From Actinomycetota bacterium (lineage in GTDB: Bacteria; Actinomycetota; Actinomycetes; Mycobacteriales; Jatrophihabitantaceae), in contig JBKPQY010000036.1 in NCBI GenBank assembly GCA_046734315.1, positions 1-57,234 on the forward strand: a DNA stretch of 57,234 bases. Direction: 5' to 3'. This document shows, in pieces, positions 2,567-24,584 of the stretch. Every line of letters begins with the position of its first letter. Position 1 is the first letter of the stretch. Under the pieces are notes generated by a model. That model did no database searches. It worked only from the letters and a program-made list of their open reading frames with translations, and had not been told where the DNA came from. The position numbers were made by a program, and so were the translations under genes.

Positions 2567-3592
2567 ATGCGCGTCGGAGTGCTCACCGGTGGCGGTGACT
2601 GCCCCGGGCTGAACGCGGTGATCCGCGCCGTCGTGCGTAAGGGCATCGGCGTCTACGGGTACGAGTTCGTCGGCTTCCGCGACGGGTGGAAGGGGCCGCT
2701 GGAGAAGCAAACCGGGCCGCTCGGCATACCTGAGGTACGCGGCATCCTGCCGCGTGGCGGCACGATCCTCGGCACGTCGCGCACCAACCCGTTGAAGGTC
2801 GACGGCGGCGTCGACCGCATCCGCGCCAACCTGCACGAGCTCGGCGTCGACGCCCTGCTCGCGATCGGCGGCGAGGACACCCTCGGCGTGGCTACGCGGC
2901 TTGCCGAGTTGGGCGTCAACGTGATCGGCGTTCCGAAGACGATCGACAACGATCTCAACGCCACCGACTACACATTCGGCTTCGACACTGCGGTCAACAT
3001 CGCCATGGAGGCGATCGACCGCCTGCACACCACGGCGGAGTCGCATCACCGGGCACTGATCGTCGAGGTCATGGGCCGGCATGCCGGCTGGATCGCCCTG
3101 CACGCCGGCATGGCCGGCGGCGCCAACGTGATCCTCATCCCGGAGCAGCCGTTCTCGATCGAACGGGTCTGTGCGTTGGTCGAGAGCCGTTTCCAGTCGC
3201 ACTACGCGCCGATCATCGTGGCCGCCGAAGGGGCGACGCCGGACAGCGGCGAGAACATCCGCCTGGACAAAGGCCTCGACGCGTTCGGGCATGTGCGCCT
3301 CGGCGGCATCGGGGACTGGCTGGCGTCGGAGATCGAGAAGCGCACCGGCAAGGAGGCGCGCACCACGGTGCTGGGTCACATACAGCGGGGAGGGACGCCC
3401 ACGGCGTTCGACCGGGTGCTGGCCACCCGGTTCGGGCTGCACGCCGTCGACGCGGTTCACGCCGGTGAGTGGGGCACGATGGTAGCCCTGCGTGGCACCG
3501 ACATAGTCCGGGTGCCGCTGGCCGACGCGACGACCGAGCTCAAGGTCGTCAAGCCGGAGCTGTACGCCGAGGCGGAAGTATTCTTCGGCTAG
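2567..3592 (+). CDS. pfkA: 6-phosphofructokinase
   Basis: MRVGVLTGGGDCPGLNAVIR, IGGEDT and PKTIDND motifs; 341 aa. Confidence 0.9.
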   Translation: MRVGVLTGGGDCPGLNAVIRAVVRKGIGVYGYEFVGFRDGWKGPLEKQTGPLGIPEVRGILPRGGTILGTSRTNPLKVDGGVDRIRANLHELGVDALLAIGGEDTLGVATRLAELGVNVIGVPKTIDNDLNATDYTFGFDTAVNIAMEAIDRLHTTAESHHRALIVEVMGRHAGWIALHAGMAGGANVILIPEQPFSIERVCALVESRFQSHYAPIIVAAEGATPDSGENIRLDKGLDAFGHVRLGGIGDWLASEIEKRTGKEARTTVLGHIQRGGTPTAFDRVLATRFGLHAVDAVHAGEWGTMVALRGTDIVRVPLADATTELKVVKPELYAEAEVFFG

Positions 3593-4653
3593 CGAGCGCC
3601 TGCCACGGTCGGTACCAAACGCGCGTTACGTAAGCCGGCGGGCAGCTGCAGCGTGAACTGCGCCCCGCCGGTGCGCGGGTTCTCGGCCTGCACCGAGCCT
3701 CCGTGCGAGTGCACGACCGCGGCGACGATGGCCAAGCCCATGCCGGTGCCGGCGCGCAGCGAACCGCTGCGGAAGCTCTCGAAGACGTAGGCGAGGTCTT
3801 CGTCCGGGATGCCGATGCCGTCGTCGCGAACCTGGATCACCGCGTGCCCGTCGACCCGGCGCGCTGACAGCGCGATGGTGCCGCCGTCGCCGGTGTAGCG
3901 AACCGCGTTGTCGAGCAGGCTGTCCAGGGCTGCCTCGAGACGGTCCGCGTCGGCGACGATCACACCCGCGTGGCTGTCGAGCGACCACTGCCGCTGCGCG
4001 GTCGGCCGCCACCGCTTGATCGTCCGTTGGAGCAACGTGTCGAGGTCGACGCGTTCCAGTCGCAGCCGGGACGGTTCTCCGACCTTGGCGAGCGTGAGCA
4101 GCCGCTCGGCGATCCGCTCCAGTTTGTCGAGCTCGTCGAGCACGATATCGACGTCCGCGCCCACCTGCGGATGGCGGTGCTCGCAGCGGATCAGCTCCGC
4201 ATAGCCCCGCGCGACGGTCAGCGGGGTACGCAGCTCGTGCGACGCGAAACGCACGAACCGGCGCTGGGCGTCGCGCATCCGGCGCTCGCTGTCGGCGAGG
4301 GCCTGTGCCTCCGCATTGGCCGTGGCGCGGCGCCGCACGTGCCACACCATGGCGAGGAACACCCCGCTCATCAGCGGGACCTCCGTCGTTTCCTCCCAGC
4401 CGATGACACCGTTCTGTACGTGGTGCACGAGTGCCCAGCCGGTGACCGTACCGACCGCGGCCAGCACCAGATACGTGCGGGTGAGCGACCAGGGCTGCAG
4501 GCCGTAAACGATCGACAGGCTGATCCACACGAAGTGGAACGGCACGGTTTCCTTGCCCGGCATGAGGAACATCAGCGCCACGTTGACCGCCGAGAAGGCG
4601 GCCCAGCCGGCGAACAGCAGGCGGTCAGCTCGCGGCGAAGCAGTAGCCCACAT
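3589..4653 (-). CDS. sensor histidine kinase, four predicted TM helices with only short loops (intramembrane-type sensor)
   Basis: H-box FASHELRTPLT and G-box GTGMGLAIV. The N-terminus shows four hydrophobic segments and no extracytoplasmic domain. The start is uncertain: ATG 4653 (MWATAS...) chosen, while the ORF is open to 4713. It overlaps the end of the regulator gene. Confidence 0.8.
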   Translation of the reverse strand: MWATASPRADRLLFAGWAAFSAVNVALMFLMPGKETVPFHFVWISLSIVYGLQPWSLTRTYLVLAAVGTVTGWALVHHVQNGVIGWEETTEVPLMSGVFLAMVWHVRRRATANAEAQALADSERRMRDAQRRFVRFASHELRTPLTVARGYAELIRCEHRHPQVGADVDIVLDELDKLERIAERLLTLAKVGEPSRLRLERVDLDTLLQRTIKRWRPTAQRQWSLDSHAGVIVADADRLEAALDSLLDNAVRYTGDGGTIALSARRVDGHAVIQVRDDGIGIPDEDLAYVFESFRSGSLRAGTGMGLAIVAAVVHSHGGSVQAENPRTGGAQFTLQLPAGLRNARLVPTVAGAR

Positions 4654-5290
4654 TGCGGACCGTCTCGATGAGTTCCTTCTCCAGCTTCGAGCGCAGCCGG
4701 CCGACGCAGACATCGACCACGTTGCTGCCGGGGTCGAACGAATAGCCCCACACCTCGGCGAGCAGCTGGTCCCGCGGGCACACCTCCCCGGCGTGACGCA
4801 TCAGGTGGCTGAGCAGGATGAACTCGCGCTGCGACAGTGAGATCACCCGGTCCCCGTGGCGCAGTTGCCGGCGCTGCATGTCCAGCCGCACACCGCCGGC
4901 GTCCAGCCATCGCGACGTCGTCGGCCCGAAGTGCTCGTCTGCCCGCCGCTTCACCCGTTCGACGAGCTCGGCGATCGCGAACGGCTTCGCGAGATAGTCG
5001 ACGGCGCCGATGCGCAGACAGCGCACCCGCGATTCGACATCGCCGACCGCGGAGAGCACGAGCACGCGCTGGCCCGGGTCGGCGTCGACCACCCTGCGGA
5101 GCACCTCGTAGCCATCCATGCCGGGCAGCAACAGGTCAAGGATGATCACCGCGTAGTCGTTGGCTTCGATCGCACGGAGCGCTTCCGGGCCGCCCGCCGC
5201 GGTGTCGACATGATAGCCGCAGGCCTCCAGCGCACGGCCGACGAATCGGCAGATGCGTTGCTCATCGTCGACGACGAGCATCCTTGTCAT
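4625..5290 (-). CDS. OmpR/PhoB-family response regulator
   Basis: Receiver domain (MLVVDDE...IILDLLLPGMDG...KPF) plus a winged-helix output (LSQREFILLSHLM...VVDVCVGRLRSKL). Start taken at MTRMLVVDD (5290); the ORF is open to 5314. Confidence 0.85.
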   Translation of the reverse strand: MTRMLVVDDEQRICRFVGRALEACGYHVDTAAGGPEALRAIEANDYAVIILDLLLPGMDGYEVLRRVVDADPGQRVLVLSAVGDVESRVRCLRIGAVDYLAKPFAIAELVERVKRRADEHFGPTTSRWLDAGGVRLDMQRRQLRHGDRVISLSQREFILLSHLMRHAGEVCPRDQLLAEVWGYSFDPGSNVVDVCVGRLRSKLEKELIETVRNVGYCFAAS

Positions 5291-5451
5291 CTTGTCCCCC
5301 GCTGCGCGCGACACCCCCGCCGAAATGCTGGCACTTGTCGCGTCGCGTTACCTGTGTAAGCCCTAGGAACACCACGCGCAAGCAACCGCTGACTATTCGG
5401 TCGCTACTCCGCGCCCGTTCGTGGCGTTCGTGGTGATTTGCCCGCCGGGCA

Positions 5452-5478
5452 ATGACGGACAGATGACAAGACGGTCAT
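5452..5478 (+). promoter_or_regulatory. candidate response-regulator operator: ATGACGG / ATGACAA direct repeat phased at 11 bp plus an inverted GGTCAT
   Basis: aATGACGGacagATGACAAgacGGTCATtt lies in the divergent RR-copCD intergenic region. The same half-site recurs at 7305-7344. Confidence 0.4.
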
Positions 5479-5519
5479 TTACCGGGTCGCCGCCGTGGGC
5501 CGTTCTTATCGTGACGACG

Positions 5520-7187
5520 ATGATCCGCCGTGCCGTCGCGTTCGCAGGGCTGGTGATCGCGCTGGTGTGTCTGGCGCCGCCTCGCCCGGCGGGCGCACAC
5601 GCGCTGCTCGTCCGATCGCAGCCCGCCAACGGCTCGACGGTGGCTGCCGCGCCCGGCCTGGTGCGGCTCTGGTTCAGCGAGGAGATCTCGACCGAAGTCA
5701 GTACGGCCCGTCTTGTCGACCGCTCCGGTGCCACAGTTACCGGCACGACGGTTCGTGCCGAGGCGCAGTTGCTCGAACTGCACGTGCCGGGCCTCGCGCG
5801 CGGAACCTACGGCGTCCTGTGGCGGGTGCTCGCCGAGGACGACGGCCACACCTCGAGCGGCACCGTCGTGTTCAGCGTGGGTGCGTCTACCGGGCCGCTG
5901 GTGGCGAGCTCGTCGGGGGGTTCGGCGACGTTGGACACGGCACGTCGCTGGCTGTGGCTGTGCGCGCTCGCGGGCGTGGTCGGCGGCCTCGCAGTGGCGG
6001 GCCTGGTACTGGGCCGGACCAGCGGGACGGATGTGTTCCGGCGCCGCATCCTCGCCGGCGTGGCCGGCTGTGCGGCGCTCGGCGCGATCGTCGGGGTGCT
6101 CGACGCGCGGGCCGAGGTGAGCCGGCTCGCCCCGGCGACGTTCGGCGACCTGCTGGCGTCGAGCCGGTGGGGGCATCTGTGGCTCGCGCGCGAGGCGGCA
6201 CTGCTCGTCCTCGTCCCGGTCGTCGTGACGTTTCGAGCGCGCGGCCGGCGCGGCCCGGGCCTGCTCGCTTTCGGCCTCGCGGTGGTGGTCGTCTGTATGG
6301 AGGCACTGCGCAGCCACGCCGCGACGGCGGGCCCGCCACGCGGCATCGCGATCGTCTCGGATGCCACGCACATCGTGGCCGCCTGCGTCTGGCTGGGTGC
6401 GCTGCCGGCACTCATCGTGCTGCTGCGGAACCGTGAGGTGCTGCGGGCATGCCGCGAGCGGTTCACCATGCTGGTGGCGGGCAGTGTGCTGGTCGTCGTG
6501 GTCACCGGTCTGTACAGCGCGGGGCGCCAGGTGGACTCGGTCGGCGACCTTGCCGGCACGTCCTACGGACGTCTCCTGCTGGTCAAGACCGCTCTGCTCG
6601 CGGTGGTGCTCGCCCTCGGGCTGGACAGCGCACGTCGCTGGCACACCGGGCGTACCCCGGTTGGGCGGATCGTGGCGGCCGAAGCGGCGGCGGGTGCGGC
6701 GCTGCTGATCGCGGTCGCCGTGCTGGTCGATACGCCGCCTGCGCGAGGCGGCATCAGCCACGCGGCAGGCCAGTCGCGCAGCGCGTCGGTCGCCGACCTG
6801 CTCGTCACGGTGTCGGCGGCCCCCAACCTGCCAGGCACGAACGGCGTGACGGTGCGGGTGGCCAGCTCGAGGCGCCCACCGCCGGCGCCGGTCAGCGCAG
6901 TGACCGTTCAGGGTGCGCGCCTCGCGCCGGTGGGTGCGGGCCGGTTCTTCGGAACAGTCGAGCTGCCGCGCTACGGCGCCGTCCCGCTCACGACCGTCCT
7001 GCAACGCGGCGGCGAGAGGCTCACACTCACGGTGCCGTGGCGGGTCGTCGCGGCGTCGCGGCACGGCCCTCGGCTCGCGCCGTATGTCGATGCCATCGCG
7101 GTTGCGCTACTCGCCGGCGCGACGCTCGCCGCCGCCGCATTCGCCAGGGCACGCCGGCGCAAACCGGTCGAGGAGCTGATTGGCTGA
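5520..7187 (+). CDS. copper resistance/transport protein, CopC-CopD fusion (YcnJ-like)
   Basis: Signal peptide followed by a mature N-terminus HALLVRSQPANGSTV...LWFSEEIS (CopC fold signature), then 8 or more hydrophobic helices (CopD-like). Start moved to ATG 5520 so that the ATGAC repeats stay upstream. Confidence 0.75.
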   Translation: MIRRAVAFAGLVIALVCLAPPRPAGAHALLVRSQPANGSTVAAAPGLVRLWFSEEISTEVSTARLVDRSGATVTGTTVRAEAQLLELHVPGLARGTYGVLWRVLAEDDGHTSSGTVVFSVGASTGPLVASSSGGSATLDTARRWLWLCALAGVVGGLAVAGLVLGRTSGTDVFRRRILAGVAGCAALGAIVGVLDARAEVSRLAPATFGDLLASSRWGHLWLAREAALLVLVPVVVTFRARGRRGPGLLAFGLAVVVVCMEALRSHAATAGPPRGIAIVSDATHIVAACVWLGALPALIVLLRNREVLRACRERFTMLVAGSVLVVVVTGLYSAGRQVDSVGDLAGTSYGRLLLVKTALLAVVLALGLDSARRWHTGRTPVGRIVAAEAAAGAALLIAVAVLVDTPPARGGISHAAGQSRSASVADLLVTVSAAPNLPGTNGVTVRVASSRRPPPAPVSAVTVQGARLAPVGAGRFFGTVELPRYGAVPLTTVLQRGGERLTLTVPWRVVAASRHGPRLAPYVDAIAVALLAGATLAAAAFARARRRKPVEELIG

Positions 7188-7304
7188 CGTCGAACTGCTC
7201 GGTGTGGATGCGCTGGGCCGGGATCGCGCAGCGCCCGCCCCACGTCAACGACCATGCCGGGCGGGCGGTCCGCACAGGAACATGTAGTCGTGGCTGGCTC
7301 GACC

Positions 7305-7344
7305 ATGACGCTTTCATGACGCCTAGATGAGGAAACCGTCATGA
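7305..7344 (+). promoter_or_regulatory. candidate response-regulator operator: two exact ATGACGC repeats phased at 11 bp plus an inverted CGTCATGA
   Basis: ccATGACGCtttcATGACGCctagatgaggaaacCGTCATGA. TCATGACG (7314-7321) and CGTCATGA (7337-7344) also form a perfect 8-bp inverted repeat. The site lies in a locally AT-richer stretch about 65-100 nt upstream of the giant ORF. Confidence 0.4.
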
Positions 7345-7408
7345 ACCGATCGGTCCGCATCCGAGCCGCGCCAAGATCACCCCAGAACGCCACGTGGGGG
7401 AGGCGGCC

Positions 7409-10400
7409 ATGCGCGCACAGCACTCGACGGGTACGACACGGCGCATCTTCACGCGACGCAGGCGCCGTCGCGCGCTCGTAGCGGGGTTCGTCACGCTCGT
7501 CGTGACGGCAACGTTCCTACCGGCGTTGCGACCGGCACTGGCCCCGCGTGCGCACGCCGCGACGTCCTGCCCGGCGGCGGGCTGCCAAGTCACCGTCAAG
7601 GGGCTGGACTTCGGCACGGGCGACCCCCTCGCGACCTACAACTTCATCGTTAACGTCGACAACACGAAGCTCCCGTCGGACCCAACGTCGCTGAGCACCG
7701 AGAGCAACAGCCCGATCGTTGCCGAAGGCGACCAGGATCAGCCCACCGTGACGCTGCCGGAAGGCCGATACCTGATCTCGATGCGTTCTCTCGACCACAA
7801 GATGTGGGGGAACTACCTGACGCTGCCCGATGCAGCGGCTGCCGACGGGACCGTGACCGTCAACATGGAGCTCACCACGCAGAGCGCGGATCATCCGCTG
7901 CCGCTGGGGAAGATCCGCGTCTTCGTCTTCAACGACAACGCCTGGACGAACGGCGCCCCCGACACCGAGGAGCCCGGTCTCGGCGGGTTCCAGGTCGGGC
8001 TCGAGGAGCAGACCGGGAGCGCCGTCACGGTCGACTACAACAACAACCCGCTCTGCGGTGGCATTTGCAAGACCTCCAGCGCCGCCGCGACTCTCGGCTT
8101 CGTCGAGATCAACAACCTGGGTCCGGCGACTTACTTCATCGACGTGCACCCACCGGCCGGGCCGTGTAACAGCGATCCCGACAGCCAGTGGTACCAAACG
8201 AGCACGATCGACGGCGGACTGCAACTGATGGCGCCGACGGAAGAGGGCGCCGACGGGACCGGTGCGCCCGGCGAGCAGCTCTGGGAGCCTCCGAACATCC
8301 GCACCGCCTACTGGTTCGGCTTCGTGTGCGCGCCGCATCCCTTCGCGAATGCCGGAACCGGGGAGATCACCGGCACCGCGCGCAACTGGGTGGAGTGGGC
8401 CCCGTACACGACCGGGACGTTTACCGACCCGGTCGAGAACCCCTTCGTGGCGCTGTCGGACGCCTCGACCGACCAGACCGTCTTCGTCGGCCAGGGCGAC
8501 GCGGCCGGCAACTTCGACATCCAGAACGTCCCGGCGGGTGACTACAACCTCGCTGTGTGGGACGAGCAGCTCAGCTACATCATGCGGTTCAAGCCCGTCC
8601 ACATCGATCCCGGTCAAACCGTCGACATGAACGATGTCGGGGACGACGGCAGCGTCGGGCTCGGCGTCTCGCGCTGGTTCGCGTGGCTGGGCGGCAAGGT
8701 CTACAAGGACCTGAACCGCAACGGTCAGTACGACGCGGGCGTCGACGCGCCGATCCCGAACACCGACATGGACCAGCGCTGGCGGGACGGGTCGATCAAG
8801 GAGTCGACGTTCACCGACGCGAACGGAGATTACCTGTACCCCACCGCAGAGGGCGGAGCGCTCGGCCGCTGGTTCATCAACGAGCAGGGCTTCGCGCGCT
8901 TCTCGGCCGACCCGGGTGCCTCCGTGCACGACGAGCGGAACCCGGATCTCGTGACGCCTTCGTGCCTCGTCAACGGCACGCCGGTCGACCCTTGTATCCC
9001 GAACTCGCAGGGTGGCGGCCTGCTGATGAACCAGTCGTTGCTCGAGGGCCACCGGGCCACGGTGGACTGGGGCAAGCACGATTACCCCGCGGGGACGCCC
9101 GGCCAGATCGTCGGCATCACCTACTTCGCGACGACCCGTAACGAGTTCGACGCACGGTTCCAGGCGCACGAGGACTACGAGGCGGCGATCCCCGACGTGA
9201 CCGTCTACCTGGAGAGCCCGGGCCCGGACGGAGTCCCAAACACCGACGACGACTTCATCGTGAACGCCTACGTCACCGACCACTGGCAGCAGCCCAACGC
9301 AAGTCAGGACCCGGTCGATCCGGCCAACCCCAGCTTCTCGCAGAGCTGCAACCCGATCCTGGACGCCAGCGGGAATGACGTCACGGGCCAGTTCAACCCG
9401 GATATCGGGCCGAACTGCCTCGAGGTCCCCCTGGCCGGGCAGCACACCAAGGAAGGCGCCTTCGACGGCGGTTACGCCTTCGCGAACTACTGCCCAGACG
9501 GCTACGACCTCGCCACCGACGCATGCACCGACGGTTCTGCACCGGACGACCACCCGCTCGTGGCGGGCAACTACATCGTCCACGCGATCATGCCGAAGGA
9601 CACCAACGACAGTCGCCCGTGCAACCCGGGCGGAGCCGAACCGCAGCGCGTCACCGAGGCGCACGGCAGCGTCCCGGGCGGCGGGAACGGCTGCCTGTAC
9701 CGGATCGTGCGCGAGGAGGACGTCAACGTCGACCTGGGCAACCAGTTCGCGCCGCAGATCCCGCCTCCTCCGTGCAACGGCGACAACCACCTGATCGACA
9801 AGTCGACGCTGACTCCGCGCAGCGTCTACTTCCCGGTGGCCGACGCGCACGCGCCGCTGTGTGACAAGCACCTCGTGGTGCTGCAGAACCAGCAGAACGC
9901 GAACGCCGACTTCTTCATGATGACCAACTTCCGAACCGACCCGAACGGCGAGGATCCCACCGACACCCGGACCGGTGACGTCGAGGAACCCGGTCGGGTC
10001 GTCGGCCAGGTCTTCAACGACATCTACTTTGACCGCAACCAGATGTCCAACTGGTACGGCGAGCCCCGTCCGATCGGAAACATTCCGGTCGGGATCTACG
10101 CCCGCGTCGACACGGTCTGCGCAGGCGGCGGCACCAACTGCGCTACGCCGAACGTCAATGCGCCGTTCACCCGCGACAACTGGCGGCTGATCAAGACGGT
10201 CAACACGAGCATTGACGGCGCTTACGAAGCACTACTGCCCTCGACCGAGACGCTCAACTGTCCGATTCCGCAGGGACCTTGCCCCGGCATGTACATCGCC
10301 GTCGTGGACGACCCGGGCACCAAGGCCAACCCGAACCCGAACTACAACCCGAACCTGCTGACGGCGAACACGCCGTTCGAGGTGTGGCCAGGGCTCACGG

Positions 10401-12784: not shown

Positions 12785-12821
12785 TCCGCGCCTCGGCGCC
12801 CGGCATCGAGAAGGGGGATCG

Positions 12822-14144
12822 ATGACCAGTCAACCAGGCATCGCCCGCCGCGACTTCTTCAAGGCTGCGGGGCTGGGTGCCGCCGGCGCGGTAGCCGTGG
12901 GGGCCGCAATGCGGTCCGGGCTGTTGCTTCCCGCGTCGGCGGCCGGCACCACCGCACTCTCGCTGGTCGCCTCGGACGGGTACATGAGCCTGCCGGGTCG
13001 GGAGGGCGATCCCGTCTACATCTTCGGCTTCGTCCCGGTCGACCCGAGCCTGCCCGTCGACCAGCTCGTGGCGACGTACAAGGGCCACACGAAGCACACC
13101 GCGCCGCATCTGAACTTCCGGCAGGACGACGACATCAAGATCACGCTGACGAACCTGGGGCTGGTGCAACGGCCGGACCTGACCGACTCGCACACGATCC
13201 ACTGGCACGGTTTCGACGTCCCGTCGCCACTCAATGACGGCGTGCCCGAGGTGTCCATCGCGGTACCCATCGGCAAGCAGGTCACCTACTTCTACCGCCC
13301 GCACCGCGAGGGCACGTACATGTACCACTGCCACTTCGAGGACGTCGAACACGTGCAGATGGGCATGACCGGGATCGTGTTCGTGCGCCCGCTACAGGAC
13401 GTCAACGGGGCGGGTGTCGGCGTGCCGGTCGCTCGCCAGGAGGGCGGAGCGTCAACCGCACCGCTCGGCTACGCCTACAACGACGGCAACGGATCTACCG
13501 CGTACGACCGGCACTTCGCCATTCTGCTCAACGAGGTATGGAAGAACTTCCACGACGGCGACCGCGACATTCAAGAGTCCATCGCCACGGACTACAACCC
13601 GCAGTGGTTCACGCTGAACGGGCGGTGCTATCCGCAGACTGTGTTGCCGAACGACAGCCCCAGCCTGCCGGAGGCAATGCGGATCGGCACCCCGAACGCC
13701 AACTATGACAACGCCATCGACTACAGCCAGCCCAACTCGGCGCTCGTCCAGGTGAACCCAGGCGATCGCGTCCTGTTGCGCCTGGCCAACCTCGGGTATC
13801 AGCAGCACTCGATGCAACTGCCAGGCATACCCATGAAGGTCGTCGGACAAGATGCGTCCTGGCTGGGCAAAGACGGCGTCGACAAGACGTACTTGACGAA
13901 CACGCTCTACATCGGCCCCGGCGAGGCCCGCGACGTGCTGTTCACCGCGCCGGCTCACGACCCGAATCGCCCATCGGGATCGGACACCAAGGGCGCGTAC
14001 AACGTCTATCGGTTCAAGAACCGAGACTGGCGGAGACTCTCCAACTTCGGAGCACCGCCCGGCCCCGGCGGAATGCAAACGGAAGTTCGCGTGTACGCGA
14101 ACCCGCTTCCCGCCCAGAGTGACGTGAGCCAGACCTATGTCTGA
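12822..14144 (+). CDS. multicopper-oxidase-like protein A: Tat signal, two cupredoxin domains, type-1 site plus half a trinuclear site in domain 1 only
   Basis: RBS AAGGGGGA. Twin-arginine motif ARRDFFKAAGLGAAG. HTIHWHG (H124/H127/H129) and YMYHCHFEDVEHVQMGM (H169-C170-H171, H177, M180/M182). The equivalent positions of domain 2 read QQHSMQLPG and GPGGMQTEV, so the ligands are lost there. Confidence 0.8.
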   Translation: MTSQPGIARRDFFKAAGLGAAGAVAVGAAMRSGLLLPASAAGTTALSLVASDGYMSLPGREGDPVYIFGFVPVDPSLPVDQLVATYKGHTKHTAPHLNFRQDDDIKITLTNLGLVQRPDLTDSHTIHWHGFDVPSPLNDGVPEVSIAVPIGKQVTYFYRPHREGTYMYHCHFEDVEHVQMGMTGIVFVRPLQDVNGAGVGVPVARQEGGASTAPLGYAYNDGNGSTAYDRHFAILLNEVWKNFHDGDRDIQESIATDYNPQWFTLNGRCYPQTVLPNDSPSLPEAMRIGTPNANYDNAIDYSQPNSALVQVNPGDRVLLRLANLGYQQHSMQLPGIPMKVVGQDASWLGKDGVDKTYLTNTLYIGPGEARDVLFTAPAHDPNRPSGSDTKGAYNVYRFKNRDWRRLSNFGAPPGPGGMQTEVRVYANPLPAQSDVSQTYV

Positions 14145-16185
14145 GCAGGCGACCGCGCGCCGCGGAAAGAAGGGCACAATGACGCAGAAGACCTGGCGCC
14201 TGGGGGCGGTGCTGGCGCTCGCGGCCGGCTCGCTGTTCGCCGTGTCGGTGCGCGGGTCGGCGCTACCTGCCGGGGCTCCCAAGGTGGGAATGGTCTGCAC
14301 GCCCGGCTCGGTCGCCGGCAGTACGCACACGTTCAACCTGGAGACGAAGACCGGCTATATCGAGACCCCCGACGGCAACAGCGTCTTCATGTGGAGCTAC
14401 GACGACCCGGGAGTGGACAACGGTCACTTCCAGAGCCCTGGCCCGGTCCTGTGCGCTACGCAGGGACAGACGATTGTCGTCAACCTGACGAACAACCTGT
14501 CGGAGCCTGTGTCCGTGGTCTTCCCAGGGCAGCAGGACGTGACGGCGAGCGGAGATACGGCCGGCCTGCTGACGACGGAGGCTGGCGCGAGCGGCGGCAC
14601 GGCCAGCTACAGCTTCACCGCGTCGAGCCCGGGCACGTACCTGTACGAGAGCGGCTCGGATATGGCTAAGCAGGTCGAGATGGGCCTCTACGGTGCCCTG
14701 GTCATCCGGCCGAGTGCGGGCCCCAACTTTGCCTACGGCACATCCACGCAGTTCAACCCGAGCCACGAGTACCTAGCGCTGCTCGCCGACATCGATCCGT
14801 TCCTGCATCACGCCGTGGAGACCGGCACCACGTACGACTTCAACTCGCGCGACAACCGGTACTTCACGATCAACGGGCGCAGCTTCCCCGACACGATCCA
14901 GGACAACGGGTCCGGATTGCTGCCGAACCAGCCGTACGGAGCGCTGGTGCGCATCCAACCGAACACGGCGGCCAACCCGTTGCCGGGCCTGATCCGGATG
15001 GTCAATGCCGGCGTGGACAACCACCCGTTCCACCCGCACGGCAACCACACCACGGAGATCGCACAGGACGGCCGGTTGCTACTGAGCCCCGGTGGGGCGT
15101 CGGCGGGGACCGAGCATTTCGGCGAGACGATCGGCGCCGGGCAGACCGAGGACTTCCTGCTGCGCTGGGATGACCAGGACCACTGGGATCCCGGCACCAA
15201 CCCGCTGCCGGTCCCGCCGCCGAACTACCGCGACGTGACATTCAAGGACGGCAACACCTGGTACAGCGGCAGCCCGTACCTCGGCTACAAGGGAACACTG
15301 CCTGCCGGAACGACGACGCAGAACATCTGCGGCGAGTGGTATTTCCCGTGGCACAGCCACGCATTGAACGAGTTCACGAACTTCGACGAGGGCTTCGGCG
15401 GGATGGGAACGCTGCTACGCGTCGATCCGCCTGGTGGCTGCTTCACCGCCGCCGCGTCGACGGTGATCGTCGGCGGGGTGCTCAAGGGCGGCTCGGTGAC
15501 CGCGCTGGCTGCCTCCGACGCCGCCTACTACCAGGTCAACCCGCGCACCACGACCCGCCCGAGTGCGACAACCGCAGGCCAGCTGAGCATCACCGTTGCA
15601 TCGGCGGCCGGCTTCCCGACGAGCGGGAATTACTTCATCCGCATTGACAACGAGGTCTTGCAGGTCACCGGTGGGCAGGGCACGACGACGTGGACGGTTG
15701 CACGTGGGCAGCTCGGAACCCTGGCCGCGAGTCACGCGAGCGGTGCAACCATTTCTGCGCTGGCCAACGACTGGTACGGGTCGTTCACCGGCGTGAAGGC
15801 CGGTTCGACGAACCTCAAGGTCACCTACCAGGGCAAGAACTGCGGCAACACAGCCGGCACGGGGTGCACGGCGATCGCGGCGAACCTCCCGCAGCAGACG
15901 GTCAAGATTTGCGACTGGACGATCTCCGGCGCGAGTGGCTGTGCCACCGCAACGTCGAACGGTTGGGTGACGTTGCCGGCGCCACCGGTCCAGCCGCGGG
16001 CTGTGGGCTCGACCGACGTGAGCTCCACCTGGACCCTTGCCGGTTCGGGCAGCCATTACATCGGCACGGGGACGTACAACGGCCAGGTCCGGGTACTCAT
16101 CCACACCCAGCGCTGGACACCGAGTAATCCGACGACCTTCTCGACGTGGGGGAACGTGCTGGCCCTCACCTACGACGCGCCGTGA
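14137..16185 (+). CDS. multicopper-oxidase-like protein B: ligand-free domain 1, half trinuclear site without type-1 Cys in domain 2, plus a ~250-aa C-terminal extension
   Basis: 8-nt overlap with the upstream gene. Signal peptide. Domain 1 reads VSVVFPGQ / YLYESGSD with no His ligands. Domain 2 has NHPFHPHGNH (H296/H299/H301) and FPWHSHALNEF (H406-S407-H408). An alternative start is ATG 14179. Confidence 0.75.
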   Translation: MSEQATARRGKKGTMTQKTWRLGAVLALAAGSLFAVSVRGSALPAGAPKVGMVCTPGSVAGSTHTFNLETKTGYIETPDGNSVFMWSYDDPGVDNGHFQSPGPVLCATQGQTIVVNLTNNLSEPVSVVFPGQQDVTASGDTAGLLTTEAGASGGTASYSFTASSPGTYLYESGSDMAKQVEMGLYGALVIRPSAGPNFAYGTSTQFNPSHEYLALLADIDPFLHHAVETGTTYDFNSRDNRYFTINGRSFPDTIQDNGSGLLPNQPYGALVRIQPNTAANPLPGLIRMVNAGVDNHPFHPHGNHTTEIAQDGRLLLSPGGASAGTEHFGETIGAGQTEDFLLRWDDQDHWDPGTNPLPVPPPNYRDVTFKDGNTWYSGSPYLGYKGTLPAGTTTQNICGEWYFPWHSHALNEFTNFDEGFGGMGTLLRVDPPGGCFTAAASTVIVGGVLKGGSVTALAASDAAYYQVNPRTTTRPSATTAGQLSITVASAAGFPTSGNYFIRIDNEVLQVTGGQGTTTWTVARGQLGTLAASHASGATISALANDWYGSFTGVKAGSTNLKVTYQGKNCGNTAGTGCTAIAANLPQQTVKICDWTISGASGCATATSNGWVTLPAPPVQPRAVGSTDVSSTWTLAGSGSHYIGTGTYNGQVRVLIHTQRWTPSNPTTFSTWGNVLALTYDAP

Positions 16186-16211
16186 GCAGCGAGGCGAAGG
16201 AGACAGTGGCG

Positions 16212-17204
16212 ATGAGCAAATTTGCAGCCATGAAGCCGCGGTTGCCTCGACTGACCAGACCGCTGTTCGTGCTGGGCATGATCTTCGCCGGCGTCGTCGC
16301 GGCCGGTTCGACGGCTTCGGCGGCCCCGGTCACGATCAACCTGTGCGCCGAGCCGGGCACTGCCACGCTCACCGGCGCCGTCACGGCGCCGATCTGGGGC
16401 TTCGCCGTTGCGGCGACGCCCGGCGCCTGCGGGGCGACGACGGCCAGCCTGCCCGGGCCGCAGTTGGTGGTGAACGAAGGCGACACGGTGACGGTCAACA
16501 TCAGCAATGGGTTGCCCGCCGGACACACGCTGACGTTCGAGATCCCTGGCATCACCCTCGACGCGGGTCCGACCGACGTCCCCGCCGGCACATCCGGAAT
16601 TGTGTCGTTCACCGCCAGCGCGCCTGGCACGTACCTCTACCAGGCCGGCGGCGGCGAGGGGCGGCAGGCGGCAATGGGACTGGCCGGTGCGCTGCTCGTC
16701 CGCTCCGCGACCCCGGGCCAGGCTTACGACAGCGCAACGACGGCCTACGACGCGGAGGCCACCGTGGTGCTCGGAGCGGTGGACCCGAACTTCAACGCGG
16801 CACCCGACACCTTCGAGATGTACAACTACACCGCAACGTATTGGCTGATCAACGGCAAGGCCTACCCCGACACCGCGGGGATCACCGCGGCAGCAGCGCA
16901 GCGGCTGCTACTCCGTTACGTCAATGCGGGCTTCGACAACACGTCGATGGCACTGCTCGGCATGCACGAGCACGTGGTCGCCCGGGACGCCCACCTGCTG
17001 AACAACCCGTTCGACGCGGCTGCCGAGACGATCCCAGCCGGTGCCACTGAAGACGCCATCGCGACGATACCGGCGGGTGCGGCTCCCAGCCCGCACGGAT
17101 TCCCCCTGTTCAACAGGCAACTTCACCTCACGAACGGGGACCAGACAGGCACCGGGCCGACGCCGGCCACCGGTGGCGGGATGTTGACCTTCATCCATCC
17201 GTAG
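16212..17204 (+). CDS. multicopper-oxidase-like protein C: two cupredoxin-like domains with all copper ligands lost (probable pseudo-enzyme subunit)
   Basis: RBS AAGGAG (16196-16201) then ATG 16212. Signal peptide ...GSTASAAP. It aligns to protein B (VNAGFDNTSMALLGMHEHV vs VNAGVDNHPFHPHGNHT; PGTYLYQAGG vs PGTYLYESGS; GGGMLTF vs FGGMGTL) but lacks the HxH and HCH motifs. Confidence 0.7.
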   Translation: MSKFAAMKPRLPRLTRPLFVLGMIFAGVVAAGSTASAAPVTINLCAEPGTATLTGAVTAPIWGFAVAATPGACGATTASLPGPQLVVNEGDTVTVNISNGLPAGHTLTFEIPGITLDAGPTDVPAGTSGIVSFTASAPGTYLYQAGGGEGRQAAMGLAGALLVRSATPGQAYDSATTAYDAEATVVLGAVDPNFNAAPDTFEMYNYTATYWLINGKAYPDTAGITAAAAQRLLLRYVNAGFDNTSMALLGMHEHVVARDAHLLNNPFDAAAETIPAGATEDAIATIPAGAAPSPHGFPLFNRQLHLTNGDQTGTGPTPATGGGMLTFIHP

Positions 17205-17212
17205 GGGGCGCC

Positions 17213-17755
17213 ATGAGCGGACGAGCAACCCTTGAGCCCGCGCCGGCGGTCCCCCCACCGCCGCGCGCGGGGTACCTCACCTCGCGCCGGATTCGGCTGC
17301 TCGGCGCCATCACGGGCGTTGTCGTCGCAGGGCTGATCACGTCGCTCGTGCTCTGGCTGACCCGCGACAAGCCGCCGGACCGTGCCGAGCTGAAGGTACC
17401 CGCATCGTGGGCCCGTCCCGTGGTCAGCGCGGCGGGCCTCGCCGACCGCAGCGGAGTGAAGATCACCCAGGTCGCGGTCACCGGGGACGGAGGACTCGTC
17501 GACCTTCGCTTCCAGGTGATCGACCCGGACAAGGCGAACGCATTGCATGACGCCGCAGCACCGCCGGCGGTCGTGGACGAGCGCACCGGGCTGGTCGTGC
17601 ACGACCTGCTCATGAGCCACTCGCACAGCGGCGCGTTCAAGCCCGGGGTCACGTATTACTACGTGTTCAACAACCCGGGCAACATCGTGAACCGCGGCGC
17701 GCGGGTCGTCGTGCTCCTCGGCAACGCGCAAGTCGAGCACGTGAAGGTGCGATGA
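17213..17755 (+). CDS. small N-terminally membrane-anchored protein of unknown function with a MSHSHSG His/Met patch
   Basis: RBS AGGGGG. One TM helix (LLGAITGVVVAGLITSLVLWL), then a ~130-aa beta-rich ectodomain. It sits 8 nt after gene C and shares an ATGA overlap with the protease gene. Confidence 0.6.
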   Translation: MSGRATLEPAPAVPPPPRAGYLTSRRIRLLGAITGVVVAGLITSLVLWLTRDKPPDRAELKVPASWARPVVSAAGLADRSGVKITQVAVTGDGGLVDLRFQVIDPDKANALHDAAAPPAVVDERTGLVVHDLLMSHSHSGAFKPGVTYYYVFNNPGNIVNRGARVVVLLGNAQVEHVKVR

Positions 17756-19950
17756 AGCGTCTCGCGCTGGTGCTGGCACTCTTGGGTGCCGGCCTCGTAG
17801 CGCCGGTCGCGGCGTCGGCCCGGCCGGCGTTTGTCGACGTCGTCGTGGTGCTCAAGTCGCAGGCGAACGTGGCCGCCGTGCAAGCGCCGACGCGTGCGGC
17901 CCGACTGGCTGGCGTCGAGCGGGCGCTGCGCGATCACGCGGCCCGGACCCAACAGGGCGTGCTTGACCTTCTCGCGCAACGCCCGGGCTCCGTCGCCGCC
18001 GTCACCCCGCTGTGGATCGTGAACGCCGTCGAGGTCAAGGCGACGCCGCACGTCATTCGCGAGGTGGCCGCCCGGCCCGAGGTGGCCGCTGTGCAACCCA
18101 ACGCCACGATCCAGGCTCCGGCGGCCGTGACGAGCAGCGCGGCCGAGCCGAACCTCGCGAAGGTGAACGCCCCGGCCATGTGGGACCTGGGCTACCGCGG
18201 TCAGGGCATCGTGGTCGCGAGCATGGACACCGGCGTGGACGCGAGCCATCCGGACCTGGCTGCGAGCTGGCGAGGCGGCACGAACAGCTGGTACGACCCG
18301 AACGGCCAGCACGCGACGCCCACCGACGTCAACGGGCACGGCACCCAGACGATGGGCGTAATGGTGGGTGGGTCCGCGGGCGGCACCTCGATCGGCATGG
18401 CGCCGGACGCGAAGTGGATCGCCGTCAAGATGTTCAACGACCGCGGCCAGGCGACGACGACCGGCATCCACCAGGGATTCCAGTGGCTGCTCGATCCCGA
18501 CGGCGACCCGTCGACGCCGGACGCGCCGAACGTCGTCAACGACTCGTGGACGATGTCGAGCGCCAGCTGCGCCCTCGACTTCCAGCTCGACCTGCGCAGC
18601 CTGCGCGCCGCGGGCATCCTGCCCGTGTTCGCGGCCGGCAACTACGGGCCGACACCGGGCACAGTGCTGAGCCCGGCCAATCTCCCCGAGGCGTTCGCCG
18701 TCGGTGGCACCGACAACGCCGACGCGATCTACCCGTACAGCAGCCGGGGACCGTCGTCGTGCGCCGGCGCGACCGCTCCTGCGCTCACCGCGCCGGCCGT
18801 CGACCTCCGCACCAGCGACCTCTACGGCGGGTACGTGACCGAGACGGGAACCTCGATGGCCGCACCGCACGTGTCGGGCGCGCTTGCTCTTCTGCTCGGC
18901 GCGGTGCCCCGTCTTTCGGCCGACCAGCAGGCGGCGGCGCTGGAGGGCAGTGCCGTCGATCTGGGCGCGGCCGGCGTCGACGCCGACTTCGGCTACGGGC
19001 GGCTGGACGTGCTCGCGGCGTACCAGCGACTCGCGACCGCGCCCGACTACACGGTCGGCGTCGCCCCGTCGTCCGCGACCGTCGCCGCCGGCGGCACCGC
19101 GTCGTACACCGTCACGGTGACCGGCGTGAACGGCTTCGCCGGCGACGTCAGCCTGTCGGTGGGCGGGCTGCCGGACTCGGTCGGCGCGGCGGCGTTCAGC
19201 CCGGCTGTAGTTTCCGGTGCGGGAACGTCGACCCTCACGATCACGACCGCCGCGAGCGCGCCGCCCGGCAGCTATCCGCTGACGATCACCGGCACCAGCG
19301 GCTCGACGACGCACACAGCGACGGCCACGCTCGTCGTGCCGGCACCACCGGACTTCGCACTGTCCGCGGCACCGTCGGCGCAGACCATCAACGCCGGCAC
19401 CGTCGCGACGTACACCGTGTCGGTCGGGTCGTTGAACGGCTTCACCGGCGACGTCGCGCTGTCGCTCGGCGGACTGTCAGCGTCGGTCGGCACGGCCACG
19501 TTCACCCCGGCCACGGTAACGACTGCGGGCACGTCGCAGCTGAGGATCACGACCGCCACCACGGCACCCGGCGGCACCTATCAGCTCACCGTGGCGGGCA
19601 CCAGCGGCTCGATCACCCACACGGTGCCGTTGAGCCTCAGCGTGCGAGCCCGCGACTTCACCCTGTCGGCCGGCCCGTCGTCGATAACGGTCACCCGTGG
19701 TCAGACCGCATCCTACAGTGTGGCTGTAGGGTCGGTGGGCGGCTTCACCGGCAACGTGACGTTGACCGTGAGCGGCGTGCCGAGCGGCTCGATCGTGTCG
19801 TGGTCGGCCAATCCGCTCGCAGCGCCCGGCAGCTCGACGCTGCGCATCCGCACCACCGGCTCGACGCTGCGCGGGACGTTCACCGTCAAGGTGACCGGTA
19901 AGAGCGGCACATTGGTGCACCAGTCGACGGTGACGCTGATCGTGCGTTAG
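17752..19950 (+). CDS. secreted S8 (subtilisin-family) serine peptidase with an I9-like propeptide and three C-terminal ~100-aa Ig-like repeats
   Basis: Signal peptide. Catalytic triad contexts VASMDTGVD (D159), NGHGTQT (H196), GTSMAAPHVSG (S368). Three tandem repeats begin DYTVGV (aa 432), DFALSA (aa 534) and DFTLSA (aa 635). Confidence 0.85.
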   Translation: MKRLALVLALLGAGLVAPVAASARPAFVDVVVVLKSQANVAAVQAPTRAARLAGVERALRDHAARTQQGVLDLLAQRPGSVAAVTPLWIVNAVEVKATPHVIREVAARPEVAAVQPNATIQAPAAVTSSAAEPNLAKVNAPAMWDLGYRGQGIVVASMDTGVDASHPDLAASWRGGTNSWYDPNGQHATPTDVNGHGTQTMGVMVGGSAGGTSIGMAPDAKWIAVKMFNDRGQATTTGIHQGFQWLLDPDGDPSTPDAPNVVNDSWTMSSASCALDFQLDLRSLRAAGILPVFAAGNYGPTPGTVLSPANLPEAFAVGGTDNADAIYPYSSRGPSSCAGATAPALTAPAVDLRTSDLYGGYVTETGTSMAAPHVSGALALLLGAVPRLSADQQAAALEGSAVDLGAAGVDADFGYGRLDVLAAYQRLATAPDYTVGVAPSSATVAAGGTASYTVTVTGVNGFAGDVSLSVGGLPDSVGAAAFSPAVVSGAGTSTLTITTAASAPPGSYPLTITGTSGSTTHTATATLVVPAPPDFALSAAPSAQTINAGTVATYTVSVGSLNGFTGDVALSLGGLSASVGTATFTPATVTTAGTSQLRITTATTAPGGTYQLTVAGTSGSITHTVPLSLSVRARDFTLSAGPSSITVTRGQTASYSVAVGSVGGFTGNVTLTVSGVPSGSIVSWSANPLAAPGSSTLRIRTTGSTLRGTFTVKVTGKSGTLVHQSTVTLIVR

Positions 19951-19967
19951 CCGAGCGACTATTCGGA

Positions 19968-20930
19968 TCAGCGCACGCTGCCGCCCGGCTTGAGCCGCCC
20001 GGGTGGCATCGGGGGAGCGGCCAGCGGGTCGCCTGCCCCGGCGACGGCGCCGAATCGCGTGCCGGTCATCCACTGCTCGCGCGCCGCGGCGACCTCGTCG
20101 CCGGAGCGGGCGACGAAGTTCCACCACATCACGATCTGCTCGGCGAACGGCTCGCCACCGAGCAGCAGCGCACGTGCGCCGGTCGGCGTGGAAAGCCGCA
20201 GGTCACGCCGGGCCGCGCCCAGATAGAGCATCGCACCGGGCGTGAGCGGCACGCCGTCCACGTCGACCTGACCTGACGCGACCAGCACGGCGTGCTCGAA
20301 GTCGGGCTCGAGCGGCAACAACGCCTCGGCTCCCGGGTCGAGGCCGATGTCGGCGCCGACGATCGGCGAGTACGCCTGCCCGGGCGAGGTGGCGCCGGCC
20401 AGCTCGCCCATGATCACCGTCGCGGACAAGCCCGTAGCGGTGAGCCGCGGCAGTGTCGCGTGGTGCGCCCACGCCGGGGCGACGTCGCGGGCGGAGTCGG
20501 GCAGCGCCACCCACAGCTGGACGCCGTGTAGCAGCGCGGGATGCGGCACGGGCGACTGCTCAGCGTGCGCGATGCCGTGCCCGGACGTCATGAGCCCGAG
20601 CTCCCCGGGACGGATCAGCCGGTCGCTGCCGAGGCTGTCGCGGTGGTGCACCTCGCCGGTGAGCAGCCAGCTCACCGTCTGCAAGCCCATGTGCGGATGC
20701 GGCGGCACCTGCATCCCCGGCCCGTTGGCGATGTCGTCCGGACCGTAGTGGTCGACGAAGCACCATGGACCGACCAGCCGGCGCCCGAGATTAGGTAGCA
20801 GCCGGCGTACCTGCGTGCTTTCACCGAGCAGCACCTCGCGGCCGGCGAACACCTCATGCACCGGTGCCGCCGCGACGCCCGCCCGGCCGCCGCAGACGCT
20901 CAGATCCGGCGTGCGGTCGAGATTGCTCAC
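19968..20930 (-). CDS. pirin-family (bicupin) protein
   Basis: HPHMGLQTVSWLLTGEVHHRDSLGS cupin metal motif. GTGA start/stop overlap with the upstream B3/4 gene. Confidence 0.8.
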   Translation of the reverse strand: MSNLDRTPDLSVCGGRAGVAAAPVHEVFAGREVLLGESTQVRRLLPNLGRRLVGPWCFVDHYGPDDIANGPGMQVPPHPHMGLQTVSWLLTGEVHHRDSLGSDRLIRPGELGLMTSGHGIAHAEQSPVPHPALLHGVQLWVALPDSARDVAPAWAHHATLPRLTATGLSATVIMGELAGATSPGQAYSPIVGADIGLDPGAEALLPLEPDFEHAVLVASGQVDVDGVPLTPGAMLYLGAARRDLRLSTPTGARALLLGGEPFAEQIVMWWNFVARSGDEVAAAREQWMTGTRFGAVAGAGDPLAAPPMPPGRLKPGGSVR

Positions 20931-21595: not shown

Positions 21596-21603
21596 CCGGT
21601 TAG

Positions 21604-23954
<2,351 letters not shown>

Positions 23955-24565: not shown

Positions 24566-24584
24566 TTCCTGCTCGCGACACGCC

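Follow-up and report, generated by a model that had tools for sequence, protein, structure and literature searches.

A conserved copper-themed locus in Actinomycetota with a predicted multicopper oxidase split across three paralogous genes

INTRODUCTION

Multicopper oxidases (MCOs) with two cupredoxin domains are the closest described relatives of three proteins encoded by a nine-gene, copper-themed locus in a contig from a member of the Jatrophihabitantaceae (Actinomycetota). The stretch analyzed, here called the window, comprises 57,234 nucleotides (nt) with a G+C content of ~70% (GenBank assembly GCA_046734315.1, contig JBKPQY010000036.1, positions 1 to 57,234). In two-domain MCOs, the trinuclear copper cluster is built from residues of two protomers, and the types of these enzymes differ by which domain carries the type 1 (T1) copper (PMC13151041; PMC11761707). 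The known members and their NirK relatives are trimers (PMC13151041).

The type C enzymes mgLAC (metagenomic; PDB 2ZWN) and Nitrosomonas europaea 2dMCO (3G5W) share with the products of this locus two cupredoxin domains per chain and a trinuclear cluster expected at the protomer interface. Subunit A of the locus has the T1 site in the N-terminal domain together with the HxxHxH and HCHx5Hx4M motifs, and subunit B has an HxxHxHG-type motif in its second domain. In the type C enzymes, three copies of one gene product make up a homotrimer that has three T1 sites and three trinuclear clusters, whereas in this locus the ligands are split over two paralogs and the third, subunit C, has none, leaving at most one cluster per trimer. 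B differs further in having a large insertion and a 240-amino-acid (aa) extension.

In six-domain MCOs, such as ceruloplasmin, hephaestin, and MnxG, the cupredoxin domains are arranged in a ring of pseudo-threefold symmetry, and one of the domain interfaces holds the only trinuclear cluster; these enzymes are single polypeptides and usually retain several T1 sites. A ring with a single trinuclear cluster is also what our model of the present subunits predicts, but these are specified by three genes with their own signal peptides, they hold one T1 site, and none of them contains six domains in one polypeptide. The relation would be an analogy by parallel degeneration, with shared ancestry apparent at the level of the MCO superfamily. 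The Mnx system of Bacillus, in which MnxG acts with MnxE and MnxF, provides a case of an MCO that works only as a multisubunit complex encoded by one operon, the accessory subunits being small non-MCO proteins around a six-domain MCO. A multisubunit complex from one operon is likewise predicted here, but with all three subunits being two-domain MCO paralogs.

The remaining genes of the locus recall copper-resistance systems. Pco/Cop systems (copABCD-copRS and pcoABCDRSE) have in common with it an exported MCO, CopC, CopD, and an OmpR-type two-component system, and the operator half-site resembles the CusR/PcoR box. In contrast to those systems, the MCO is two-domain and split rather than a three-domain, Met-rich CopA/PcoA, CopC and CopD are fused, CopB/PcoB is missing, the kinase has no periplasmic sensor domain, and the locus additionally encodes a giant surface protein, a small anchored protein, and an S8 protease. 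The fusion architecture and the N-terminal His/DxH Cu(II) site are those of Bacillus subtilis YcnJ, which sits with ycnK/ycnI and is controlled by cytoplasmic repressors; the fusion in this locus instead accompanies an oxidase operon and has an operator of the OmpR type.

We think it fairly likely, judging from sequence comparisons, that the locus encodes a co-regulated extracytoplasmic copper-oxidase machine, in which an MCO split into A, B, and C is carried by the giant surface protein. The narrower proposal is evenly poised: that A·B·C is an obligate heterotrimeric MCO, in effect a ceruloplasmin-like ring split in three genes, with a single T1 site and a single trinuclear cluster and with C mounting it on the giant protein. 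What is new is the predicted split heterotrimeric MCO, its putative docking on the giant protein, a conserved candidate operator, and the wide distribution of an apparently uncharacterized system.

RESULTS

Nine genes and two operator sites. An open reading frame (ORF) listing of the window, family searches against Pfam and NCBIfam, and a reading of the gene junctions reproduced the nine genes that the initial annotation had named, as well as their order and the junctions it had given. With the operator sites described below, the features are as follows.

3589-4713, minus strand: sensor histidine kinase (HK), with HisKA and HATPase_c domains; gene callers place the start at 4653
4625-5314, minus strand: OmpR-family response regulator (RR), with Response_reg and Trans_reg_C domains
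5421-7187, plus strand: CopC-CopD fusion membrane protein (CopCD), with CopC and CopD Pfam matches and an extra C-terminal domain; likely start ATG 5520
5451-5467, plus strand: operator copy AATGAC-GGACA-GATGAC, in the divergent region between RR and CopCD
7304-7331, plus strand: operator array CATGAC-GCTTT-CATGAC-GCCTA-GATGAG, with an 11-bp period, 63 to 90 nt upstream of the giant gene
7394-12784, plus strand: giant secreted acidic protein (Giant), 1796 aa, pI 4.45, with a signal peptide
12822-14144, plus strand: MCO subunit A, with the twin-arginine translocation (Tat) signal RRDFF and a type-C-like two-domain fold
14137-16185, plus strand: MCO subunit B, with domain-2 ligands only and a ~240-aa C-terminal beta-rich extension
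16182-17204, plus strand: MCO subunit C, with a Cu-oxidase_3 match and a two-domain cupredoxin fold lacking any conserved copper-ligand motif
17213-17755, plus strand: membrane-anchored protein of 180 aa (Small), with a transmembrane (TM) helix at 24-50 and an immunoglobulin (Ig)-like beta-sandwich
17752-19950, plus strand: secreted S8 subtilase (S8), with a Peptidase_S8 domain and the triad D159/H196/S368

The genes from A onward are tightly packed: A and B overlap by 8 nt, B and C overlap at GTGA (the longest ORF for C would begin at 16146), C and Small are separated by 8 nt, and Small and S8 overlap at ATGA. The 37-nt gap between the giant gene and A contains the ribosome-binding site GAAGGGGG. 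Gene calls by the Joint Genome Institute (JGI) on identical metagenome contigs are concordant with the genes of the window.

Copper ligands are divided between A and B. The three MCO subunits are mutual paralogs over both cupredoxin domains (hhalign probability of 100% for all pairs). The closest PDB sequences to A are the type C two-domain enzymes 2ZWN and 3G5W, which rank second and third when the PDB sequences are searched with the profile of B. The architecture is that of type C enzymes, with two cupredoxin domains in ~300 to 450 residues, to which B adds its 240-aa tail.

Domain 1 of A retains the motifs HTIHWHG and HCHFEDVEHVQMGM, which supply both the T1 ligands (H124, C170, H177, and M182, invariant in 79 of 79 orthologs) and half of the ligands of a trinuclear cluster (H127, H129, H169, and H171). 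Domain 2 of A has no HxH motif, reading QQHSMQLPG where 2ZWN has IHAMHSHG. Conversely, domain 1 of B is devoid of copper ligands (EPVSVVFPG; YESGSDMAKQVEMGL), and domain 2 retains NHPFHPHGNH (H296, H299, H301, and H304), which aligns to DHVHAIHTHG of 3G5W and GIHAMHSHGH of 2ZWN, as well as WHSH (H406 and H408). Profile alignments set the HTIHWHG of A opposite EPVSVVFPG in B, and the NHPFHPHG of B opposite QQHSMQLPG in A and DNTSMALLG in C. A T1 site in the N-terminal domain is thus confined to A, with neither B nor C having T1 ligands.

The same division holds across the orthologous clusters. The HxxHxHG motif occurs in 79 of 79 A, 71 of 73 B, and 0 of 71 C proteins; HCH..H occurs in 78 of 79 A proteins, and HCH is absent from all 73 B and all 71 C proteins. 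An HxH motif preceded by an aromatic residue was found in 78 of 79 A proteins (the WH of WHG and the YH of YHCH), all 73 B proteins, and 3 of 71 C proteins. All eight cluster histidines of A and B are invariant or nearly so, and no A, B, or C polypeptide has all four HxH pairs, the full set being present only in A plus B. Because no single protein holds the full set and domain 1 of A and domain 2 of B together supply the eight histidines, a 1:1:1 ring is the simplest model.

In that model, A, B, and C would assemble, in the order A, B, C, into an obligate heterotrimeric ring that holds four coppers in total: a blue T1 copper in A and a single trinuclear cluster where A domain 1 meets B domain 2. 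Electrons would be taken from a substrate at the T1 site of A and passed over the His-Cys-His bridge to the A/B cluster, where O2 would be reduced to water. C, which has no ligands, is the predicted structural third subunit and adaptor, through which the trimer would be attached to the giant secreted protein with its beta-sandwich and beta-helix parts. C is the fastest evolving of the three. The beta-rich C-terminal extension of B (~240 aa) has no match among the families searched, and in Chloroflexota and some Actinomycetota it is C and not B that has a C-terminal extension, consisting of PKD, cadherin, or Ig modules.

We found no description of heteromeric two-domain MCOs, of the present gene combination, or of the related cluster of Cupriavidus metallidurans CH34 in searches of the literature. 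The "heterotrimer" aaa' of Nmar_1354 (PDB 9CCK) was considered as a precedent and rejected, because its chains all come from one gene, some full length and others shorter, and SDS-polyacrylamide gels show a fragmentation pattern.

A fusion links C to the giant protein. The protein annotated initially as a giant beta-helix protein is right-handed beta-helix-like in its C-terminal third, and to this extent the description stands; the remainder is made up of successive beta-sandwich domains of the SdrD-B, prealbumin-like, CarboxypepD_reg, and TIG types. Searched against the PDB, the single sequence had no match, and the profile matched solely SdrD-B and TIG domains. We rejected an assignment to NosD, which would rest on a generic beta-helix N-cap: the scores for PF05048 (16.7 bits; cut-off, 23.6) and TIGR04247 (24.5; cut-off, 300) are below threshold, the TIGR04247 match spans just the 51-residue N-cap, and weak NosD matches occurred in 4 of 15 giant orthologs.

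A tblastn search of plasmids and chromids recovered distant orthologs (33 to 35% identity) in Cupriavidus metallidurans CH34, Paraburkholderia, and Ralstonia. Two of these betaproteobacterial clusters were delimited.

16725-24821 of locus L164: cluster on the CH34 chromid NC_007974.2
16883-25054 of locus L165: cluster of Paraburkholderia

Both have the order A, B, a single ORF of 2698 to 2723 aa, and Small. The long ORF, which in Paraburkholderia is the annotated coding sequence BEI72459.1, is C-like at its N terminus and giant-like over the rest, and the ligand split among A, B, and C is unchanged in Cupriavidus and Paraburkholderia. This C-Giant fusion constitutes Rosetta-stone evidence that C contacts the giant protein, and the A·B·C trimer probably docks there.

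Neighboring genes of the CH34 cluster encode a secretin, a LolA-like protein, and two pseudopilins; in this diderm, the presence of a secretin and pseudopilins fits an extracellular destination. CH34 has a 541-aa ORF where Paraburkholderia has an annotated substrate-binding-protein gene. Neither CopCD nor an OmpR-type two-component system was found in the CH34 and Paraburkholderia regions examined, and S8 was not found in the CH34 cluster region. Since the betaproteobacterial core occurs without CopCD and the two-component system, the copper-handling genes belong to an accessory layer outside the universal core. As predicted from this comparison, the universal core is Giant, A, B, C, and Small, around which CopCD, S8, and the two-component system make up a layer specific to certain lineages. 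The gig genes of CH34 (Rmet_4682-4685) were considered as the cluster and set aside: they appear to be another locus, with the tags for ABF11561-ABF11564 estimated, from position and accession, to lie near Rmet_4800.

The module is conserved across phyla. An alignment of protein A, used to scan a collection in which one genome represents each species, yielded at least 566 confirmed matches, from which the best 80 loci were taken with 10-kb flanks and compared with the proteins of the window by tblastn and blastp. Linkage was counted in the 52 of these 80 loci with at least 4 kb upstream and 5 kb downstream, and the counts are lower bounds because the flanks are limited. The 80 loci come from Actinomycetota (Jatrophihabitantaceae, Cellulomonas, Micromonospora, Actinoplanes, Dactylosporangium, Kribbella, Nocardioides, Streptosporangiaceae, Solirubrobacterales, and Gaiellales), from Chloroflexia and Anaerolineae, and from one metagenome-assembled genome (MAG) of Binatia.

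Giant-A-B-C-Small occur in a single order in essentially every sufficiently long locus. Giant, directly upstream of A, and Small are each present at a fixed position in 52 of 52 loci. The other genes are linked but mobile in place and strand: S8 occurs in 49 of 52 loci (36 downstream on the same strand and 13 upstream on the opposite strand), and CopCD (39 of 52), RR (37 of 52), and HK (35 of 52) each occur in four arrangements. The nine-gene order is therefore conserved in its core and variable in its accessory part. Linkage that is kept across phyla while the order is shuffled points to functional rather than accidental coupling, and together with the C-Giant fusion and the shared operator described below, it upholds the initial proposal of one functional module over that of a chance neighborhood. 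A conserved, co-regulated module of nine genes is supported as real.

Variants of the cluster were also encountered. At 16 loci, there is a NarL-type regulator with its own kinase, as in a Chloroflexia MAG. Among loci L082, L083, and L050, Micromonospora sp. MP36 and Planosporangium have a divergent cluster in which A is 46 to 49% identical, B is short, and C is ~1040 aa, resembling the Chloroflexota type, and in L050 the opposite strand holds a second, partial A/B pair. Protein A of the Chloroflexia and Binatia copies is 65 to 70% identical to that of the window. The divergent Micromonospora/Planosporangium forms and these identities suggest two ancient subtypes and transfer between phyla. 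In four Actinoplanes loci (L017, L020, L023, and L027), no CopCD fusion was detected, and an ORF of ~310 aa with several hydrophobic stretches lies between Small and S8 (14584-15585 in L017, with equivalents in the other three); it may be a stand-alone CopD-like protein.

A shared operator precedes the giant operon and CopCD. OmpR/PhoB-family regulators typically use direct repeats at 11-bp spacing, and a direct repeat with an 11-bp period, of consensus (C/G)ATGAC(A/G)-N5-(C/G)ATGAC(A/G), occurs in these loci. Allowing at most one mismatch, CATGAC-N5-CATGAC has 51 matches in the 80 loci plus the window (1.53 Mb), as opposed to 1 to 4 in shuffled sequences, and 47 of the 51 lie upstream of the giant gene, CopCD, RR, or S8. 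A relaxed core, [AG]TGAC-N6-[AG]TGAC, has 88 matches in 1.50 Mb, 74 of them no more than 480 nt upstream of the giant gene, where it is enriched 238-fold; 45 of 56 loci outside Chloroflexota carry it, as opposed to 0 of 12 Chloroflexota loci. The stricter form, tried as a discriminator between loci with and without a nearby RR, gave no separation, and the relaxed core was more informative. In L004 and L026, equivalent sites with one mismatch lie 135 nt from the RR start, just as in the window. The shared operator joins the giant operon, CopCD, RR, and, in some genomes, S8 into one predicted regulon.

The operator also bears on the start of CopCD. The public gene call is the longest ORF, beginning at GTG 5421, and the operator copy at 5451-5467 lies within it. 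Because the operator falls inside this ORF and ATG 5520 opens a typical signal peptide, ATG 5520 (MIRRAVAFAGLV...AGA/H) is probably the true start, giving the protein a normal signal peptide.

The Escherichia coli CusR box is AAAATGACAAnnTTGTCATTTT, and the Pseudomonas aeruginosa CopR site is CTGACAn5GTAAT (PMC11195947). The half-site ATGACA of the present operator is identical to the half-site of the CusR box (PMC11195947). Among NCBIfam models, that of the heavy-metal regulators fits the RR best, albeit below its cut-off. We infer that the co-located RR would bind the ATGAC operator and that the inducing signal would be related to copper. The HK is on the same strand as the RR and has ~4 short hydrophobic segments before residue 145 with no large external domain, as well as HisKA and HATPase_c domains, consistent with the initial description of an intramembrane-type HK and an OmpR regulator on the minus strand; it is, by this prediction, of the intramembrane-sensing type. 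Its orthologs share the motifs PfH, YG..W, E..EvPLM, and WH.rRR in the membrane region.

Putative copper supply, processing, and export. CopCD combines Pfam matches to CopC (5.6e-20) and CopD (2.8e-12) in one fused protein with ~10 hydrophobic segments. As in YcnJ, a polytopic CopD follows an N-terminal CopC domain that bears a His1/Asp/His Cu(II) site, the conserved mature N-terminal His (A/HALLV) and the DDGH motif forming the Cu(II)-site signature. Small has no sequence match in Pfam, NCBIfam, or the PDB. Its AlphaFold2 (AF2) model (predicted local distance difference test [pLDDT] score, 83) consists of a TM helix and an Ig-like sandwich, and a Foldseek search against the PDB gave only generic Ig-like folds, none below an E value of 1e-3. 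H112, M134, H136, and H138 of Small are invariant in an alignment of close actinomycete relatives, and the family profile recovers 1681 representative clusters at an E value of at most 1e-3 and 621 at 1e-10 or less. S8 is a subtilase (PF00082, 3.5e-50) with the triad D159 (DTG), H196 (HGT), and S368 (GTSM), and its C terminus consists of three tandem Ig-like repeats of ~102 aa, encoded by 303- to 306-nt repeats at 19098-19775.

The orthologs of A invariably carry the Tat motif. Signals of the Sec type occur in B, C, Giant, and S8, and a single TM segment occurs in Small. Since A would be exported by the Tat route and B and C by Sec, a cluster at their interface would be assembled outside the cytoplasm, which would be a plausible job for CopC. 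In Actinomycetota, then, a lineage-specific layer may operate in which CopC-CopD, and perhaps Small, handle copper for assembly outside the cell, S8 does the processing, and the OmpR-family system binds the ATGAC repeats upstream of the giant operon and CopCD. The roles of scaffold, maturation protease, and copper supply proposed in the initial annotation are likewise putative.

DISCUSSION

Weighing the oxidase reading. Several observations weigh against a split copper oxidase under copper-related control. None of the features examined identifies a substrate. The WHSH motif of B could not be aligned to a solved structure because of the large insertion in B, and the AF2 model of B, built from a 26-sequence alignment, is unusable (pLDDT score, 45.8). 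Stoichiometries other than 1:1:1 that contain an A/B interface may apply. The operator, allowing at most one mismatch, is present in only 21 of 43 loci with a nearby RR. The best NCBIfam model for the RR, TIGR01387 of the heavy-metal (CzcR/SilR/CopR) subfamily, scores 188 bits with a cut-off of 279, and the HK lacks a periplasmic sensor domain like that of CusS/CopS. In Betaproteobacteria, only the Met of the MxHxH motif of Small persists, which weakens a universal role as a chaperone.

We would guess that the substrate is an extracellular electron donor, in all probability a polymer or insoluble, that is met via the giant adhesin-like protein, rather than Cu(I) itself; it is the adhesin-like architecture of the giant protein that hints at a polymeric or insoluble substrate.

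If Cu(I) were the substrate, the locus could be the monoderm counterpart of Pco/Cop, its MCO oxidizing Cu(I) to Cu(II) at the envelope, CopC and CopD trafficking copper, a CopRS-like system inducing all the genes under copper stress, and the acidic giant protein sequestering metal. The parts do parallel copABCD-copRS (an MCO, CopC, CopD, and an OmpR-type two-component system), the best model for the RR is that of a heavy-metal regulator subfamily, the half-site ATGACA matches that of the CusR box, and the giant protein has a pI of 4.45. However, Met-rich segments are a hallmark of cuprous oxidases of the CueO/PcoA/CopA type, and no protein of the locus has one; the maximum of Met plus His in any 30-aa window is 7, which is the ligand motif itself. 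The CopC domain bears the Cu(II)-type site motif only. The betaproteobacterial core, even in CH34, a model of copper resistance, lacks CopCD and the two-component system and is accompanied instead by a secretin and pseudopilins, and in one CH34 copper-transcriptome paper, a very limited text search gave no match to multicopper, secretin, or pilin. Moreover, copper detoxification leaves unexplained why an adhesin-like protein of 1800 aa is always linked to the oxidase and why an S8 protease accompanies it. On the strength of the missing Met-rich segments and of a core without copper-handling genes in Betaproteobacteria, we rank this role, which we consider unlikely, below that of an oxidase for another donor with a dedicated copper supply.

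The composition of the enzyme could also be simpler than a heterotrimer. A and B, to which the copper ligands are confined, might form the active enzyme as a heterodimer or higher oligomer, with C acting on the giant protein only, as a separate adaptor, chaperone, or pseudo-enzyme. The rapid evolution of C and its variable PKD, cadherin, or Ig extensions or fusion to Giant would be in keeping with such a role. Yet C has both cupredoxin domains in full and can be aligned with A and B over its entire length, its gene always directly follows that of B (with overlapping stop and start codons in the window), and, as known two-domain MCOs and their NirK relatives are trimeric (PMC13151041), three paralogs are most simply accommodated in a 1:1:1 ring. 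An enzyme of A and B alone appears improbable on these grounds.

NirK-type nitrite reductases are among the weaker sequence matches, which could suggest that the complex does not reduce O2, in which case A would be NirK-like or would transfer electrons as a blue-copper protein, and B would use its histidines for another mononuclear or binuclear site. The type 2 copper of NirK needs three histidines only, but all eight are invariant or nearly so here, and A and B give exactly the four HxH pairs and HCH bridge that define a trinuclear cluster, so that we attach very little weight to this possibility. Finally, a chance neighborhood of unrelated secreted proteins and copper genes is scarcely credible given linkage of the core in 52 of 52 loci and of the accessory genes in 35 to 49 of 52, across phyla and despite rearrangement, as well as the shared operator and the C-Giant gene fusion.

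Implications of a split oxidase. The two-domain MCOs that we found described in the literature searched are all homotrimers with three identical active sites. If the split-oxidase reading is correct, a natural heterotrimer with complementary ligand loss shows how paralog specialization can cut three sites to one, and it is a living example of the proposed route from homotrimeric two-domain to six-domain (ceruloplasmin-type) oxidases. The locus would then belong to a class of oxidase machines at the cell surface that has so far gone unrecognized and is shared by Actinomycetota, Chloroflexota, and Betaproteobacteria, the members seen all being annotated only as "multicopper oxidase domain-containing" or "hypothetical." An oxidase carried on an adhesin-like protein of 1800 to 2700 aa suggests contact-dependent oxidation of an extracellular soil substrate, with a bearing on lignin or humic turnover or on metal oxidation. 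The system occurs in cultivable and partly tractable bacteria, including Cellulomonas, Micromonospora, Actinoplanes, Kribbella, C. metallidurans CH34, and Ralstonia solanacearum, and its conserved operator offers an immediate handle on the inducing signal.

GENOMIC CONTEXT

On one side, the locus is bordered by genes for an acyltransferase, an Rv2179c-like protein, and pfkA and on the other by genes for pirin, a B3_4 protein, and a class II 3-deoxy-D-arabino-heptulosonate 7-phosphate (DAHP) synthase (aroG). We scanned metagenomes with pfkA and compared the resulting contigs with the flanking genes by tblastn, considering related actinobacterial contigs of at least 6 kb. In 20 such contigs, in which pfkA is 70 to 81% identical, aroG begins within ~180 nt of pfkA, in most within 100 nt. 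The backbone of an a/b hydrolase, acyltransferase, Rv2179c-like gene, pfkA, aroG, and a beta-eliminating lyase recurs in the related contigs that include these flanks, and a few contigs have different inserts of 1.6 to 5 kb at the pfkA/aroG junction. In the window and in the nearest genome (L004, a MAG of Jatrophihabitantaceae, Actinomycetota, whose protein A is 93% identical), the interval from pfkA to aroG is occupied by the nine genes and those for pirin and B3_4. The related contigs with pfkA directly beside aroG thus corroborate the view that an accessory locus was inserted into a conserved backbone.

A scan for sigma-70 promoters and terminators gave nothing above chance, and an Rfam search gave no matches. 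The comparison of G+C content and codon usage with the flanks, proposed along with the insertion, revealed no compositional mark of recent transfer: G+C content at third codon positions (GC3) is 0.84 to 0.90 in the genes of the cluster and 0.81 to 0.92 in the flanks, and the dip in total G+C over 8 to 17 kb arises at first codon positions and reflects amino acid composition. Recent horizontal transfer was rejected on this basis and because there is neither an adjacent tRNA gene nor flanking direct repeats.

Between the window (2567-22953) and L004, the flanking housekeeping genes are 98% (pfkA), 99% (pirin), 95% (B3_4), and 97% (aroG) identical, as opposed to 66% for CopCD, 76% for HK, 84% for both Giant and S8, and 86% for B. 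The higher divergence of the cluster suggests either its faster evolution or its allelic replacement. Downstream of the locus, two DAHP synthases of different classes lie less than 3 kb apart, the class II aroG at 21613-22953 and a type I enzyme with a ferredoxin-like domain at 24585-25646, and they are followed by a gene for a PASTA-domain Ser/Thr kinase at 26517-28496.

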